A stretch of DNA of 64,000 nt, taken from contig OZ250169.1 in the NCBI GenBank assembly GCA_965237955.1, forward strand, positions 7,200,001 through 7,264,000, given 5' to 3'. Below, one piece after another: positions 29,390 to 43,863 of this stretch (its first letter is position 1; the number at the start of each line of letters is the position of its first letter). Origin of the DNA: Candidatus Marinacidobacterales bacterium (lineage in GTDB: Bacteria; Acidobacteriota; Vicinamibacteria; Marinacidobacterales; SMYC01). Made by a program: the position numbers and the translations under genes. Under the pieces are notes generated by a model, which worked only from the letters and a program-made list of their open reading frames with translations, ran no database searches and had not been told where the DNA came from.

Positions 29390-30030
29390 AAGTGACCCCC
29401 GGCAAAGCCGGGGGCCTATTCATAAGAGCCCCTCGAAGGGGCTGTTCATGAGCCCCCTAAAGGGGGCGATCTTGCTCCCCAACTACGAGCCCGACCAATC
29501 CATATTCAGCTGGTCCAGACGTTGGTCCTCCTGCTCTTGGAATGTACTTGCGGACCATCTCTTCGTCCAAGCCTACGGTCGACACGAAGTAACCGCGTGC
29601 CCAGAAGCTTTCGCCGGTGAAGTTGCGTCTGCGTCCGCGGAAGTTCCGTGCCACCGAGATCGCACTCTTGCCTTTGATGAACCCCACCACGTTCGACACC
29701 GCAAACTTCGGTGGGATGCTGATGCACATGTGGACGTGGTCCGACATCAAGTGGCCCTCCAGAATCCAGGCCTCTTTTTGTTTCGCCAGCTCGTGGAGAA
29801 TCTTTCCCAGATGCGTTCTGATTGCACCATACATCTTCTTCCTTCGGTACTTCGGGATGAACACAACGTGATATTTGCAGTCCCATCGTGTGTGGGATAG
29901 GCTCTTGTATTCTTTCACCTTGGTAGTCCTCCTTGTTTGGAAGTTCGCGCTTTCCAAGGAGGACTTTCTTTCCTACTTCCTTACACGGTCAAACCTCTGG
30001 GAGTCACCCCGGCAGAGCCGGGGGTTTACC
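29390..30030 (-). mobile_element. tnpA: IS200/IS605-family element (tnpA only; CDS about 29500-29957 with a 3' frameshift)
   Basis: YHVVFIPKYR, DHVHM (HUH), FWARGYF; sub-terminal hairpins CCCCGGCA(A/G)AGCCGGGG near 29397 and 30007. Confidence 0.92.
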
Positions 30031-37697: not shown

Positions 37698-37847
37698 TTA
37701 CCGCTCCTCGACGGGCTGCACTTCTGTGGCTTCGGCCCTCTTTTCTGTACCCTCTCGCACTTCTTTGCCAAACATTTTCTGGAATCTGCGCCTCCGCTCG
37801 ACCCAACCCTCACGCTTATTCCTGTCATGAATATCTCTCGCCATCAT
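37698..37847 (-). CDS. 49-aa charged small protein, below the ORF-track cutoff
   Basis: AAGGAGG RBS; MMARDIHDRNKREGWVERRRRFQKMFGKEV...EER; downstream of a candidate ECF promoter. Confidence 0.55.
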   Translation of the reverse strand: MMARDIHDRNKREGWVERRRRFQKMFGKEVREGTEKRAEATEVQPVEER

Positions 37848-37995
37848 CTCAAAGCCTCCTTAGAAATCGGAATCGAGTGCGGTGGCCATCCCTCCCACGC
37901 GGCCGCGAAATCGGCTACGCATCGGGACTTGGGGACGAGCCACGCAAAGCAAAATATTCAATTTCGTGGCTTGCCCTTGCTAAGCCCTCGCTTCT

Positions 37996-38030
37996 CGATA
38001 GTGAGTGCACGAAGGGCATGATTTCTTACG
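37996..38030 (-). promoter_or_regulatory. Candidate ECF sigma promoter
   Basis: CGTAAGAAAT-N13-CACTCACTATCG. Confidence 0.75.
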
Positions 38031-38118
38031 CGTTGAATTGACGAAGAGCTGAGCCGTGGTCTCGCAAGGGGTTTCTGAAGAGCGCGGGCTTGAGTCCGTC
38101 CTTGGCCGGCCGCTCGAA

Positions 38119-38152
38119 TGTAATGATTCCCGCCTTGGTCGCACTCACTATC
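38119..38152 (+). promoter_or_regulatory. Candidate ECF sigma promoter
   Basis: TGTAATGATT-N13-CACTCACTATC, 43 bp before the PEGA gene. Confidence 0.7.
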
Positions 38153-38195
38153 ACGAGGGCGCACTGAGGCGCGCTCATTATGAGGAGGAATTCTG

Positions 38196-38624
38196 ATGCG
38201 AAACGCAATAAAGAGTTTGGCGTTCGTGGCAGCAATAGCTGCCGCGGCATTCATATCGTTTCCGGCCGAGGCCGATGCGCAGCACCATGGCTATGGCCAT
38301 GGTTACTACGGCCATGGCTACGGGCACGGCTATGGGAGTTACGGCCCGTATGGTTATGGGGCGAGCCGATACTCCGATAGCGGAGCCGTTCGGATCGAAG
38401 TCAACCCGAAGCCATCCCGTGAGGACATTCAAGTTTACGTGGACGAGGCGCACGCTGGCGTCGTCGACAACTTCGACGGTTTCTCTCAGAGGCTTTATCT
38501 TTCTCCGGGAAAACACGAAATCGAGATTAGGCTTGATGGATATGAGACCCTTCGGCTGGCCATTTTAGTCAGCCCCGGTAACACCTACCACATTCGTGGC
38601 GAGATGAAGCCTCTCGCCGCATGA
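38196..38624 (+). CDS. Secreted PEGA-domain protein with His/Gly/Tyr-rich N-terminus
   Basis: Signal peptide, HHGYGHGYYGHGYGHGY, VYVDEAHAGVVDNFDG, PGKHEIEIRLDGY. Confidence 0.85.
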   Translation: MRNAIKSLAFVAAIAAAAFISFPAEADAQHHGYGHGYYGHGYGHGYGSYGPYGYGASRYSDSGAVRIEVNPKPSREDIQVYVDEAHAGVVDNFDGFSQRLYLSPGKHEIEIRLDGYETLRLAILVSPGNTYHIRGEMKPLAA

Positions 38625-38724
38625 GCTTAAGGAGATCCGGGACGCATGGTACCCATCAAAACAGTACTTGCGTCCCGTTCTCTCCGCCTATCACGGCTTT
38701 GTTGGATTCAACTTACAGTAGAAG

Positions 38725-39099
38725 ATGGAGGTCGATAGGGATATATGGATCGGAAACGAGTGGAAGAGGCCTTTCTTCACCCTCCTCGGCGAGAAGTTGA
38801 GTCTCGACAACGTCGAGCATGACCTCATCCGCGAGAAGGGCAATCTGACCACCTTCCGGGAGCCTCGGATCCATTTTGCTTTGAACTGCGCCTCAAAAGG
38901 CTGCCCCGCCCTCATGAACCGACTTTATGTGGCATCCAAGCTAGATCGACAGCCACGGCTTGCCGCCAAGACTTTCCTCAGAGATCGAAGCCGCAACTAT
39001 TTGACGAATCAACGGCCACGCTTCATCTCTCACCCATCCTGGCGATCTGGTACAAGTCGTATTTCAAAAAGTTCCATACCTCAGTCTGTAACTTTGTAG
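38725..39099 (+). pseudogene. DUF547 C-terminal fragment
   Basis: SLDNVEHDLIR, EPRIHFALNCASKGCP; N-terminus missing and 3' end degraded. Confidence 0.75.
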
Positions 39100-39111
39100 C
39101 AACGTGGAATC

Positions 39112-39450
39112 ATGAGAGACACGACTGCTCGAAAAAACTCAGTCGCCCTGCTCACTCTACTGCTCCTTCTGTCCATGCATGGCGCAGCGGGCGCGGCCGA
39201 CCCGCTGCGGCTCGCACTCGGGTGGTACGACGGTTTTCACATCTGCAGTGTCATGACGAAGCCGATCCAATCCACCGTCGTCGATATTTTTGCGACGTTC
39301 GGCGTCCTAGCATTCTGGAAGGCGGAAGACGGGCTAATGTTCCGACATACGGTCCGAGGGCGACTGCTGCGACGCCGGCTGGAGGTCGACTCGGAGTACG
39401 TGCGCGAATTTCTCACAAAATTCCAGAGGCGATCGCAGCGTAAGTCATGA
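39112..39450 (+). CDS. Hypothetical protein, possibly degraded
   Basis: ORF with a signal-like N-terminus only. Confidence 0.3.
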   Translation: MRDTTARKNSVALLTLLLLLSMHGAAGAADPLRLALGWYDGFHICSVMTKPIQSTVVDIFATFGVLAFWKAEDGLMFRHTVRGRLLRRRLEVDSEYVREFLTKFQRRSQRKS

Positions 39451-39487
39451 GCCTCACTCAGATTCGACACCGGTCAAGTGGAGCGAA

Positions 39488-41626
39488 TCATCGGGTTGGA
39501 TACAACGCGAGGTGACCACCTGCTTCTCGGCAAGCGAAAGGGTCATGGCTCTTTGGAGGCACGGCAAACGTTCCGTACAAAACGTCTCCCAGAAACGGCG
39601 GATTGAAATTAAAGTCTGCGTCGGGACATTCATGATGCAGCCTATGATGCCGGTTCTGATAATCTCTTATCCAGTTCAATAGGGGAATATAGCTAATTAT
39701 CCTATCGACGAAATTGTCTTCGACATGTCCAAACCAGTGGCTTACCTCGAAGACAACGTAATGCAAAACGACACCTCCGAAAAACGCCAGAAGCAATTGA
39801 CTCGGTAGGAGAGCCTGAACGACAACGTAGTGAACTAGAAAAGCAGCGGGAAACAAATACCGGAGGTGCCCCCACCATAGTTGAAGGTTCGAGGTGGTGG
39901 CGGCTCCTGACACATGGTTTACCCGACTTTGGCGTGCTTGTCGAGCGCTTGATTCTCAGTGACCTCCGCTAACTTCGCTTCGAGGATCGGTAGCGATTGG
40001 TATCCAATGATACGACGGAAATTTTTCTCCGTGGCGAGCAGAGCCGAAGCGGCCCATCTCAGAACCATCTTGCCATTGCGCCAGCGGGTGACGCGACGGG
40101 TACGACCTCGCGCACCGCTGAAGCACGACTCGATGATGTTCGTCGATCCAAGGCAGCGTTTCAGAGATGCGGGGAGGTCGAGCTCGTTGATGGTGAACAT
40201 CTCGTCGAGCCCCTCCCGGATGCTCTCCGCCGCCGAGGGGTAGTCGTCCTCGAGCCACTTCGCCTGTTGCTCCAACCGCGCTTTGTCCTTCTTTGCTGGG
40301 AGCTGCCAGGCCGAACGCAGGCTCGCTTGCACTTGCGGCTTCAGCTCCTGCGGCAGATAACCGAGCACATTGCGCTCCTTGTGCTTCCTGCAACGCTGGA
40401 CCTTGTTGTGGGTACCGAACACAGCGTCGACGGCGACCCGTAGCGCCTTGGAGCCATCGATCACGAACAGCCGACACCGCTCTGGGCTCAGGCCTCGTTC
40501 GACCAGGTCCTCCAGCAGCGCCTTGCACACTATCTGGTTCTCCGATGCTCCATCCCGAAGCCCCAGAACATGCTTGTATCCCTCTGTATCTACGCCGATT
40601 GCCGCCAGCGCGTGGTGCTCGCCGAAGCGAATCCCGTCCAGGTACACGACCGCGATCTCCAGCTCGTCCAGCGGACGCTCCATCAGCCCCTGCAACTGCT
40701 CCGCGCTTGCTTCCACGAACTCACGGCTCACCTCGCTCTTGCTAACCCCTACCGTCTCCGCCATCTCGGGAAGAACCGACGCGTACTTGCGCGTCGACAC
40801 ACCCAGCATCAGGATTTCCCAGATGCGTTGGCTCAGCCGAGACGAGTTGTTCACCGCTTCGTAGGCAGGAATCGCAACCTCCCCTCCCTCTGCCTTTCCC
40901 TTACGCCGCAGACGTGGCCGGCTCACTCTCAACTTCCGCTCCGCAAGGCTTACTACGCCACCCTGCCGGCCGTGCCAGCGAACATCGCTACCCTTCTTCC
41001 CCGGGTGTTTCTCCCCAGCCACACTTTGGGCTGACAGATCCAAGACCGCTTCGATCGTCGCTCGGCCAGCAACGTCGATCACTTCGTCGATCGCTATCTC
41101 GGTTCGCTCAATCGCATCCAAGAACGGCAACAGAGCTTGCCCCTTCGAGCTCAGTATCTCTCGAAGCTTCTTCCTGTTCTTCGCATCGATGATTTGGTAA
41201 TTTGACATCGTGGTGGCTCCTTTCTTTTTCCTTCACAGCCGGATTCTATCGAACCCGGCCTTAGGAGCCGCCACTCCTAACCTTCAACTATCTCAGGGGC
41301 ATCTCCCAAATACCAATTCGCTGCTATATGCTTCAGGTCACTCTCTTTTTGTGTGGTGAAATTATCGCCATTGAAAATCGTGTGGTGTTCCAGATGCTTC
41401 TTCCTGATAAATGCAAAATGTTCAATACCGCCATGCATAACGACTCTGTGGTGCCATATTCGAAGAAATGCGTGTAAACAATTCCCACCAAGAACAAAAG
41501 ACCCATGTTCCACGACAAGTCTCTACTTACCAGATCATCGAGATGAAGCAAGGTGATCAAAAGAAGGGGGGTGATGGCTGCAAGCACGACGATTACGATG
41601 GGTTTGTGAAGCTTTATTCCTGCCAT
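39488..41626 (-). pseudogene. Sterol desaturase / fatty-acid hydroxylase family membrane protein split by IS256; frameshift near 41455
   Basis: His boxes HRVVMH, HLEHH, HWFGH, HHRLHH; removing the IS restores NWYLFPAAF. Confidence 0.8.
39862..41306 (-). mobile_element. IS256-family IS, 1445 bp; transposase 39919-41208
   Basis: IRs GGAG(G/A)TGCCCC...ATAGTTGAAGGTT; 8-bp TSD CAAATACC; GVSTR, YLDG, VIDG, QRC, STNIIE. Confidence 0.95.
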
Positions 41627-41775
41627 GTCAGATTCCTCCTTCCACTCTCTCGATAGTGAGTCAATGCACTCATCGGGGCCTCGGTCGATCGCTGCGGGAT
41701 GCTGGACGCCGGTTCCAGAGAGCTGAGGGGAGCTCCGTGGAGCTCCCCCCATGGTCGTGCCGCTCCGTGTGTGGC

Positions 41776-42228
41776 TCAGGACGCTCCCGCCAAAGCCTCC
41801 GTCGAGTCGAAAGCGCGATGCCTCAGAAAAGCGTAGCTCGTCCCGAGGATGGCGCCATAGACGAGATGGCCAACCAGGCTAGGAAGCATGTTGCCGGCCG
41901 CAACAAGATTCCAATTCACGCCGAGCCCCATACCCATGGAAAGTGGCATCAAGGTCAACGGCCCCAACAGCCACCAGATCCCACCGTACGCGAGACCGCG
42001 GGCCAGGCCATCAACGAGGCGTCGGATGCCTCGCCCGAGGAGCACACCGAAACCAGCACCGATGATGGCACTGTTGACCATGTGGATGAAGAAGCCGAAA
42101 ACGGCCGAGGGATGGCCCGCCATCTTCCCTATCATCGGGAGCATTCCCATCATGCCCATCATGGCACCAAAGACGGCGCCTCCGGCGAGTCCGCCGTAGA
42201 TTCCCAGTCTAATATTCCTCACGTTCAT
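41776..42228 (-). CDS. Met-rich four-TM membrane protein
   Basis: GGAGG RBS; GAVFGAMMGMMGMLPMIG, HMVNS, GPLTLMP, SLVGHLVYG. Confidence 0.75.
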   Translation of the reverse strand: MNVRNIRLGIYGGLAGGAVFGAMMGMMGMLPMIGKMAGHPSAVFGFFIHMVNSAIIGAGFGVLLGRGIRRLVDGLARGLAYGGIWWLLGPLTLMPLSMGMGLGVNWNLVAAGNMLPSLVGHLVYGAILGTSYAFLRHRAFDSTEALAGAS

Positions 42229-42370
42229 CTCTTCCTCCAGGTAATTGTTAGGGTCGAATCGAGGATGGTGAGACCGAACGCGGGCCCGCAACCGATCATC
42301 TCCATTGCGAGCCGCTTCATCGGCTACTCGCTCGAGCGTCACTTTGCGATCGGCCCGAGCATCCCAGCCT

Positions 42371-42405
42371 CGATAGTGAGTGTGGGAAGGCGGGGATTTC
42401 TTACA
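42371..42405 (-). promoter_or_regulatory. Candidate ECF sigma promoter
   Basis: TGTAAGAAAT-N13-CACTCACTATCG. Confidence 0.75.
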
Positions 42406-42474
42406 GGCGGGAGTCGCGGGGCGAGCGGTGAGAACGATGCCGGATTCCTCAGGAGCGGTGCTCGAGGATAATGC

Positions 42475-42858
42475 TCAACTCGGCGTCCGCATCGGGGACG
42501 GCGAAGCGGAAGAGGCTTTCGGGGCAGTGCTATCCAGACGGGCGAAGTTACGTAGGCTCCTGAATACGTCGACGATGCGATTAGAGGCAATCTGGTTGAG
42601 CTTGCTAATTCCTTCGAGCACTTGGAGCGTTCGGCGCAGTTCATCGTTCTCCCGGAACTCGGCGGGAGCTGCCTTCAACAGCTCTAGAAGCTTGTCCATG
42701 GCTTGGACCATCAGCTGGCCGTTCGAGTCGATCACGCCAACCGGACTGTTGATCTCGCGTGCAACCCCAGCCACAAGAGTCCCCTGGCTTGTCATCTTTC
42801 GTCCAATCGTTCCGGTCACCACCGCAACTTCGGGTTTGTTAAGTTCGTGCCTTGCCAT
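42475..42858 (-). pseudogene. Histidine kinase HisKA fragment
   Basis: GTLVAGVAREINSPVG (phospho-His replaced), RSLRNFARLD; no ATPase domain. Confidence 0.65.
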
Positions 42859-42874
42859 TACTCTTCCCTTCTCC

Positions 42875-42911
42875 CGATCGTCAGTGTAAGAAGGCGAGGA
42901 TTTCTTACACT
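42875..42911. promoter_or_regulatory. Overlapping divergent ECF promoters, one facing the sigma gene
   Basis: Minus strand TGTAAGAAAT-N13-CACTGACGATCG; plus strand TGTAAGAAGG-N13-CACT. Confidence 0.7.
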
Positions 42912-42934
42912 CCGGGTTGGCGAGGAGACGAGCC

Positions 42935-43549
42935 ATGGCAACGGCGGAGGGTTCCGACAGCATTACGGTGCAGATGGAGGATGCCAAGTTCGCCGCGCGA
43001 ATTCGGGCGGGCGAGCGTGAAGCCCTCCAAGCCGTAGTGCATGCCTACATGAGTCAGCTCCTGCGCGCCGCGCGGGGCGCGGGCTTGAGCCCCCATCGCG
43101 CCGAGGACGTGACCCAGGCCACGTTTGTGACTTTCATCGAGATCGCCCCCCGCTTCGAGGGAAGGTCCCATGTGCGCACTTTCTTGTTCGGCATCCTGTA
43201 CAAGAAGATTGCCGAGGCCCGCCGCGAACTCCAACGGAATCAACAATTTGACGCTATCGATGATGTCGTGGAACAACGGTTCAAGACCGACGGGAGCTGG
43301 CAGCGCCCACCGAGACCGATCGACCTCCAGCTCCACGATGCAGAAATTCGAGACGCGATCGACGGCTGTCTTGAGCACGTATCCACTCAGAAGAGAATGG
43401 CCTTTGTGCTTCGCGAAGTCGAAGGCCTCGCGACAGAAGAAATTTGTAAGATTCTGGAAGTGACGCGCACTAACCTAGGAGTGCTGCTATATCGTGTTCG
43501 CGACCACCTTCGGGAATGCCTGGAGGCAAAGGGTGTGAGAGAGCGTTAA
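42935..43549 (+). CDS. ECF RNA polymerase sigma factor
   Basis: AEDVTQATF, RFEGRSHVRTFLFGILYKK, FVLREVEGL..EEICKIL. Confidence 0.92.
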   Translation: MATAEGSDSITVQMEDAKFAARIRAGEREALQAVVHAYMSQLLRAARGAGLSPHRAEDVTQATFVTFIEIAPRFEGRSHVRTFLFGILYKKIAEARRELQRNQQFDAIDDVVEQRFKTDGSWQRPPRPIDLQLHDAEIRDAIDGCLEHVSTQKRMAFVLREVEGLATEEICKILEVTRTNLGVLLYRVRDHLRECLEAKGVRER

Positions 43550-43551
43550 TA

Positions 43552-43863
43552 ATGATGCTGAAATGCCGGGAGCTCACGCGCATGATTGCCAGCGACGAGC
43601 TACCCGAGGCCAGGTGGCCGGTGAGGATGGGAGGATGGCTTCACCTGCTAATGTGCCGGCACTGCCGCCGCTACGCAGCACAAATCCGCACCCTTGCCGC
43701 CGGAGCTCGGAGGTCTTGGGGACCGGAAGCCGAAGACTCAGCAAGGCTCGATCAGCTCGAGCGCAGAATCCTGGAGCGCTGTCTCGGTGAGTCGGAGAAC
43801 TCCATTTCGTCTGCCCGTGGACCGGGTACGCCTACGGATCCGGACGAGCCCCAGCGATCGTGA
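43552..43863 (+). CDS. Soluble zf-HC2 (ZAS) anti-sigma factor
   Basis: MLKCRE...HLLMCRHCRRY (HxxxCxxC), directly after the sigma gene. Confidence 0.88.
   Translation: MMLKCRELTRMIASDELPEARWPVRMGGWLHLLMCRHCRRYAAQIRTLAAGARRSWGPEAEDSARLDQLERRILERCLGESENSISSARGPGTPTDPDEPQRS

Follow-up and report, generated by a model that had tools for sequence, protein, structure and literature searches.

Positions 37698 to 43863 of the window, the 64,000-nucleotide stretch of contig OZ250169.1 from a Candidatus Marinacidobacterales bacterium analysed here, hold a gene for an extracytoplasmic function (ECF) sigma factor, its anti-sigma gene and a set of neighbouring genes, several of which are preceded by copies of the motif TGTAAGAAWT-N13-CACTCA. 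The sigma gene (42935..43549, plus strand) encodes a 204-residue ECF293-like protein with three conserved cysteines in region 4, and is followed by the gene for a 103-residue soluble zinc-finger anti-sigma factor of the zinc-binding anti-sigma (ZAS) type (43552..43863, plus strand). Four features lie on the minus strand: a HisKA remnant (42475..42858), the gene for a Met-rich membrane protein (41776..42228; 150 residues, 13 of them Met, with two invariant His), a desaturase/hydroxylase-like gene with His boxes (39488..41626) and the gene for a 49-residue small protein (37698..37847). The PEGA-domain protein (38196..38624; 142 residues, rich in His, Tyr and Gly, with a hydrophobic N-terminus) and a DUF547 remnant that covers profile positions 41-125 of 125 (38725..39099) are encoded on the plus strand. 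The frames of the sigma factor, the anti-sigma factor and the Met-rich, PEGA and 49-residue proteins are open here; the DUF547 frame lacks its start, HisKA is a remnant, and the desaturase gene is broken by a frameshift and by an IS256 element (39862..41306, minus strand) that has an 8-bp target duplication and 34 further near-full-length copies in the genome. Contigs of other strains are without this insertion sequence and carry a longer DUF547 sequence. An earlier note on this DNA had described the genes much as given here; what changes is the desaturase gene, now seen to be split and frameshifted, and the sigma start, placed at 42935.

Four copies of the motif in the window have the 13-nt spacer. 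Site 1 (37996-38030, minus strand; 28.8 bits) stands before the 49-residue gene, site 2 (38119-38153, plus strand; 27.4 bits) before the PEGA gene and site 3 (42371-42405, minus strand), the best promoter match at 34.6 bits, before the Met-rich gene, while site 4 (42875-42909, minus strand) is a conserved divergent promoter immediately 5' of the sigma gene and directed away from it. The window contains four matches to TGTAAGAAAT-N13-CACTCACT with at most three mismatches against 0.01 expected, a number reached in 0/100 shuffles. Under a weight matrix trained on 55 sites from related loci, sites 1-4 score 27.4-34.6 bits. These four and a copy identical to site 3, located in a partial locus duplicate at 8.10 Mb, occupy the first five ranks in the 8.13-Mb genome; the next-ranked site has 20.1 bits. 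Matrix scans with spacers of 11, 12, 14 and 16 nt gave no site of at least 18 bits, and a spacer of 15 nt gave three, two of them of at least 20 bits. The earlier note had counted five matches with 13-nt spacing. Sites 1-4 stand, with the end of site 2 moved 1 nt further from 38152 to 38153, but the fifth (42885..42919, plus strand; 42885-42911 in the note) scores 4.1 bits and is rejected as a promoter: it is a palindromic mirror of site 4, whose -35 arm recurs inverted within its own spacer. The lone downstream half reported at 41651-41661 (minus strand) indeed has no -35 element here, yet this -10 half-site is a full promoter clipped by a deletion, because past 41661 the contigs from runs X6 and X7 go on with a perfect spacer of 13 nt and its -35 element, and genome G008 holds a complete 34.6-bit site ahead of the same desaturase gene. 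A contig from run X8 has about 680 additional bases at the 41661 junction. A dispersed repeat starting TGAAAGAATAC, found in the window around 29849-29917 and in at least five other places of the genome, gives six-mismatch matches to the motif; it is probably a mobile-element end unrelated to it.

The motif accompanies this sigma gene well beyond the present genome. From 67 loci found in Acidobacteriota, Gemmatimonadota and other phyla, five with partial sigma matches were excluded, and the remaining 62 were used together with the window (63 loci). A site of at least 14 bits lies on the opposite strand between -200 and +40 of the sigma match start in 55/63 loci, directed away from the sigma gene, and the best spacer of the divergent sites is 13 nt in 55 cases and 14 nt in one. 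Thirteen genomes were fetched later, of which one duplicated a training locus and six were new members of the clade; a divergent site of 21.9-32.1 bits is present in five of these six held-out genomes. Two cautions weigh against taking these figures at face value. The count of 55 is partly circular because the matrix was trained on those divergent sites, and the held-out set comprises six genomes only, two sharing a genus; moreover, the loci are related, hence the p-values overstate significance. Among 61 related genomes the sigma factor occurs in six and the motif in seven, and all six sigma-bearing genomes are within those seven. The seventh genome, G008, has three strong sites on two contigs, before desaturase, Met-rich and PEGA genes (L126, L127); a point on the other side is that this 96% complete assembly is without such a sigma factor, which makes its regulon an orphan one. 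In G184 one site is on a different contig from its sigma gene. The earlier view of a self-contained regulon thus fits this genome, where the sites are local, and fails for G008 and G184. A metagenome scan with the motif only gave 24 loci, 14 of them with homologues of the sigma, anti-sigma, Met-rich or PEGA proteins within 1.5 kb; of the others, five were of low guanine-plus-cytosine content without a module gene and five had no match to the window proteins. A strict pattern run over 301 genomes of the phylum matched four, against 15 that carry the sigma factor at 1e-35, and is too stringent for a co-occurrence test; of three foreign matches to this pattern two have the sigma factor and one, AT-rich, is without it.

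The orientation of the motif is indicated by the genes that it faces. Among sites not adjacent to the sigma gene, 20/22 lead into an open reading frame (ORF) with a ribosome-binding site, compared with 5/22 when the motif is reversed. With TGTAAG set at -35, an invariant or near-invariant A falls at -11 and at -7, and the predicted +1 base is a purine in 69/76 intergenic and 41/45 internal sites. The core GTAAG and the 13-nt spacer fit the type of Neisseria sigmaE, with one mismatch after the core; the -35 element of that factor is given as GTMAGBWTT with a 12-13 nt spacer in the available account (PMC2893595). The link between motif and adjacent sigma factor drawn in the earlier note thus gains from the six of six sigma-bearing genomes, from the likeness to Neisseria and from the direction of the sites, and these sequence comparisons make it likely that the adjacent ECF293-like sigma factor reads the motif as its -35/-10 promoter. 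Nothing tying the motif arms to ECF sigma factors was found in the open-licence literature.

The sigma and anti-sigma genes appear to encode a partner pair. ECF293 is described, in the portions of the source used, by a soluble zinc-finger anti-sigma factor at position +1, three cysteines in region 4 and an extended linker between sigma2 and sigma4 (PMC7826278). Here an anti-sigma homologue is present at +1 in 59/62 loci; Cys5, His31, Cys35 and Cys38, which make up a Cys...HxxxCxxC motif, are invariant in 58/58 anti-sigma homologues, and the region-4 cysteines occupy three columns in 58, 56 and 57 of 58 sigma sequences. About 38 residues separate the sigma2 and sigma4 Pfam matches. The top family of the sigma factor is TIGR02943 (Sig70_famx1) at 107.8 bits, under the curated cut-off of 162.2, with a match to this family in 0/14 control genomes; the anti-sigma factor scores 46.7 bits with NF052368, slightly under the cut-off of 50. 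In a tree of 48 rows the 26 clade members form a single branch (95/98) apart from the Neisseria-containing branch, and the clade and 11 named relatives, including N. gonorrhoeae, split from 10/11 other ECF factors of the genome (98/93), with sparse outgroups and one long outgroup row at the midpoint root. Identity between the clade and the named relatives is 28-35%. From its sequence, the sigma factor is a member of a distinct ECF293-like clade. In a model of the sigma/anti-sigma complex the score was 0.78, the best control reaching 0.00; contacts agreed to 99%, and the partner predicted local distance difference test (pLDDT) value was at least 85. The mark applied is reached by 116/157 solved pairs and 2/215 mismatched pairs, and resemblance to solved pairs may account for the pass. 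Cupriavidus RpoQ, considered as a possible relative, was dropped, being placed in ECF16 with a membrane anti-sigma factor in the part of the source consulted (PMC13492112). At the divergent position, three remoter sigma factors (L140, L141 and L142; 45-49% to the clade) show an altered -35 element, TGTAATGTC, and L142 additionally has a site facing its own sigma gene, a possible switch in feedback design. In L045 and L058 the motif stands ahead of a second, different ECF sigma gene, which suggests a sigma cascade.

A further copy of the motif, overlooked in the earlier note, lies inside the sigma coding sequence. This predicted sigma-dependent promoter (43445..43479, plus strand; 19.4 bits) falls in the codons of region 4, and its predicted start at 43480 is 72 nt before the ATG of the anti-sigma gene. 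It is the top coding-strand match in 56 of the 58 full-length sigma genes (five frameshifted or short ones were left out), reaches at least 14 bits in 45/63 loci and has its end 63-77 nt 5' of the anti-sigma start in 40 of the 44 cases measured; in five of the six held-out clade genomes it scores 11.6-15.2 bits. Codon choice within it is strongly skewed, with TGT for 54 of 56 Cys compared with 55 of 125 elsewhere, ATT for 42 of 52 Ile (127/570 elsewhere) and ACT for 37 of 55 Thr (70/520 elsewhere). Among 188-189 third-position columns, the four with the strongest bias are all within the element at all three redundancy levels, and the bias holds among 22 genes of less than 70% identity (z 4.6-6.2). 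At the codon contributing the first base of the -10 element, the last letter is C in 58/58 genes, across 10 amino acids; none of the other variable columns (73) is above 0.73, and counting each amino acid once gives 5e-4.

The intergenic sites could be true promoters and the internal match a by-product of the conserved helix-turn-helix and of shared ancestry, with no role in feedback. The match does cover conserved residues (Cys-Lys-Ile and Thr-Asn), the sequences are kin, and several further points speak against a promoter here: the site is weaker than the intergenic ones and departs from the motif at -28 and -8, it is below 14 bits in 18/63 loci, and it is absent both in the 11 named proteobacterial and actinobacterial relatives and in the three relatives at 45-49%; in one of these three, a 14.4-bit site is directed toward the sigma gene. 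The signal nevertheless sits at synonymous positions and runs contrary to the codon usage of the genes, survives in the divergent subset of 22, spans 10 amino acids at one codon and includes the purine at +1, which makes the by-product account doubtful. Constraint on the third codon positions in the element implies a sigma-dependent promoter for the anti-sigma gene, and the internal copy is predicted from these patterns to raise the anti-sigma level and so to act as a built-in brake. No report of an internal promoter under synonymous constraint of this type was found in the open-licence literature.

The repetition of the motif in the window is, as judged from its flanks, partly due to descent. 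Site 1 with its flanks aligns to the region upstream of the L023 sigma gene (74.5% over 102 nt), and sites 1, 3 and 4 have flanks in common. A second copy of the locus (L001:12536-13688, at about 8100464-8101701 of G000:C1) is 95-96% identical and carries a 933-nt deletion; it retains the Met-rich gene and site 3, what is left of its sigma gene is a region-4 stub that can be read in frame from a start further upstream, and its anti-sigma factor has Tyr at the first Cys. The deletion joint also occurs in contigs of runs X6 and X9. These shared flanks, the second copy with its deleted sigma gene, the three broken targets and the sites of G008 without a sigma factor would suit an account in which the repeats of the window are duplication relics in a decaying island rich in insertion sequences, or binding sites for another protein. 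Against this, both arms, their distance and the +1 base persist across several phyla with spacers that vary freely, the motif and the sigma gene co-occur, and different genes stand behind the motif in different lineages; the relic account is accordingly judged improbable.

Autoregulation of the sigma gene, suggested in the earlier note with the plus-strand match, finds no support. None of the 63 loci has a site of at least 14 bits on the sigma strand within 600 nt upstream, the best sigma-strand score within 300 nt upstream is 8.5 bits and belongs to the same palindromic lineage, and a sigma-facing upstream site is present in 0/6 held-out clade genomes. The lack of a sigma-facing site in these 63 loci leaves positive autoregulation unsupported. 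A classical module that drives its own operon from 42885-42911 (plus strand), or from the motif read in reverse into the sigma gene, would suit the conserved site immediately 5' of the sigma start in most loci, the site facing the sigma gene of one 46% relative and the autoregulation of Neisseria meningitidis sigmaE recorded in the excerpted source (PMC2893595), but it is most improbable in view of the low plus-strand scores and of the TGTAAG-to-CACTCA direction, which enters genes at non-adjacent sites and agrees with the Neisseria -35 element, for which that source has a mapped start.

Transcription of the pair may instead begin at a housekeeping promoter. Within 110 nt beyond the site toward the sigma gene, the median sigma70-like score is 7.6 for 54 sigma-adjacent sites and 4.1 for 22 others (p about 0.001, with kin that are not independent), and the strongest elements mostly end 23-44 nt from the ECF -10 element. 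In the window, a weak sigma70-like element at 42836..42864 (plus strand; score 9.9) points toward the sigma gene and opposes site 4 head-on; it is uncertain in this genome. Several points weigh against this promoter: the sigma70 matrix was an informal one, just 22/54 sigma-adjacent sites reach a score of 8, and a consensus scan of the window gives no such promoter. This step is the weakest of the proposed scheme because the window candidate fails the consensus scan.

We consider it probable, from the sequence patterns and the complex model, that the motif is the promoter of the sigma factor, that the sigma factor is held by its zinc-finger anti-sigma partner, and that the system is self-limiting through the promoter copy inside its own gene. 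In this scheme, a single housekeeping promoter, directed toward the ECF promoter, would drive the genes of both proteins, and a thiol-reactive stress (an oxidant, a soft metal or arsenite) would strip zinc from the Cys/His site and free the sigma factor. The freed sigma factor would then transcribe the divergent gene for the Met-rich membrane protein and variable exported or redox proteins, and would also transcribe the anti-sigma gene alone from the internal promoter, while RNA polymerase at the divergent promoter would impede the housekeeping promoter. With anti-sigma-only transcription and a hindered housekeeping promoter, the response would shut itself off.

The Met-rich protein is proposed as the core target. 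It is encoded in 36/62 loci, has 1161 homologues and features invariant Met, His, Trp and Pro residues. It is DUF6789/DUF1440-like: it scores 16.8 bits with DUF6789 (E 0.0077), for which the Pfam gathering score is 27.1, PF20587 is found on 2 of 120 homologues among the matches listed, and its Atlas neighbours (0.93-0.96) include DUF1440/DUF6789 clusters. The predicted fold (pLDDT 89.5) has four long helices and no Foldseek match at E 0.001. The best VIA-align match (Z 6.5, root-mean-square deviation 3.9, 117 aligned) is typical of common helical bundles, and no function is therefore deduced from it. The genes that follow the motif differ between lineages, and other first genes behind it encode PEGA, BON, fasciclin, DUF4136, DUF3179, thioredoxin and DUF302 proteins or a second ECF factor. 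A homologue of the 49-residue protein, 46% identical, follows this motif in L009. The HisKA remnant, in which the His is replaced by Arg, is an internally deleted relative of a longer kinase-thioredoxin frame in L023; a role as a His-less decoy protein was rejected, since the frame is what a deletion left behind and has a homologue in 1/62 loci. In L012 (7-255) the first target is an 82-residue protein whose N-terminus is hydrophobic and which carries Cys-Gly repeats; it resembles metal-binding peptide precursors and has no Pfam or NCBIfam match. An intact desaturase-like paralogue without the motif lies at about 1265800-1266500 of G000:C1, and an ORF of 112 residues with a hydrophobic N-terminus follows the DUF547 remnant (39112-39450, plus strand), with no family match and no homologue in the 62 loci.

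ZAS proteins let go of their sigma factors upon thiol attack. Arsenosugar genes adjoin part of the loci: arsS is present in 8/62 loci of two lineages and has no match in the present genome. In one lineage (L016, L022, L024, L026, L027 and L028) arsS and arsM immediately follow the anti-sigma gene, about 850-2900 nt past the sigma start, and in the near-identical L013 and L034 a DUF3179-thioredoxin-arsS series stands behind the divergent promoter, with arsM traced in one of them; the arsS and arsM copies tested exceed the NCBIfam cut-offs. The named relatives adjoin MsrPQ, thioredoxin/CcdA, peroxiredoxin or DUF692 clusters, and clusters of the DUF692 type include copper-binding bufferins in the portion of the source available (PMC12452194). 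By analogy, the trigger is likely a thiol-reactive stress; a redox or metal signal fits the family and the neighbours, and arsenic is an added candidate. A consideration on the other side is that Neisseria sigmaE is described, in the sections drawn on, as unresponsive to peroxide, diamide and singlet oxygen (PMC2893595). On the same analogies an oxidant or disulfide signal would be the foremost of several possibilities, though short of an even chance, with a soft metal a slightly lesser one, arsenite a minor candidate and some other signal the least expected. The most specific version, which we regard as unlikely, would combine an arsenite-sensing pair with a three-Cys zinc site, solely negative self-control, a target promoter colliding with the housekeeping promoter, DNA for the -35-reading domain that doubles as the anti-sigma promoter (joined by arsS-arsM in one lineage) and an uncharacterised Met-rich effector. 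Nothing was found in the open-licence literature on Neisseria MseR with copper or on arsenosugar with a sigma factor. A cassette for a flavin adenine dinucleotide (FAD) oxidoreductase, a radical S-adenosylmethionine (SAM) protein and a metallophosphoesterase follows the anti-sigma gene in L023 (8900-11782). The same cassette occurs here at G000:C1:7276375-7280222, 33 kb off, beside a distant ArsM-like gene and with no upstream motif, and a radical SAM-ArsM-like fusion lies nearby in L045.

The motif is real and conserved and is likely an ECF promoter in a layout that inverts the usual feedback; the parts and the logic each have precedents. Prediction of ECF promoters usually searches the strand of the sigma gene, 5' of its start, and would overlook this motif. 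For ECF293, the accounts at hand give no promoter conserved across subgroups and leave the signal unsettled (PMC2893595, PMC7826278); to this the present analysis adds, for a clade found in uncultured Acidobacteriota and Gemmatimonadota, a sharply defined promoter with its predicted start, a core effector and a scheme of feedback. The internal site would be a clean case of dual coding, and the rarity of the motif (five strong sites in 8.1 Mb) means that it could serve as an orthogonal, self-limiting switch.

The closest known system is the Neisseria sigmaE (Ecf)-MseR pair (ECF293, old ECF13), which shares a soluble Cys...HxxxCxxC anti-sigma factor encoded directly downstream, three region-4 cysteines, a GTAAG-type -35 element with a 12-13 nt spacer and a small regulon, as set out in the excerpts used (PMC2893595, PMC7826278). 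Neighbours of redox or metal type in relatives are a further likeness. The -10 element, however, is CACTCA here and CGTCTAA(H) in the passages on Neisseria (PMC2893595), and the phyla given for ECF293 in the portion of its description used include neither Acidobacteriota nor Gemmatimonadota (PMC7826278). Here, unlike in Neisseria, the promoter leads away from its sigma gene, and a Met-rich membrane protein takes the place of MsrAB as core target; the named relatives have no internal site. Within the sigma coding region of E. coli sigmaE, the source as excerpted likewise places a sigma-dependent anti-sigma promoter, rseAP3 (PMC8595263). That promoter, in contrast to the one proposed here, lies more than 230 nt upstream of rseA. 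In E. coli, rpoE is also positively autoregulated, and RseA is a membrane protein. The feedback logic resembles that of SigH-RshA in Corynebacterium glutamicum, for which the available text describes housekeeping promoters for the pair and a SigH-dependent promoter for the ZAS anti-sigma gene alone, the latter proposed to hasten shut-off (PMC3489674). The SigH regulon is large and dispersed, whereas a few local genes appear to be controlled here; the feedback proposed for this clade, in another organism and with another sigma factor, is suggested by clade-wide codon constraint and has the target promoter facing the housekeeping promoter.

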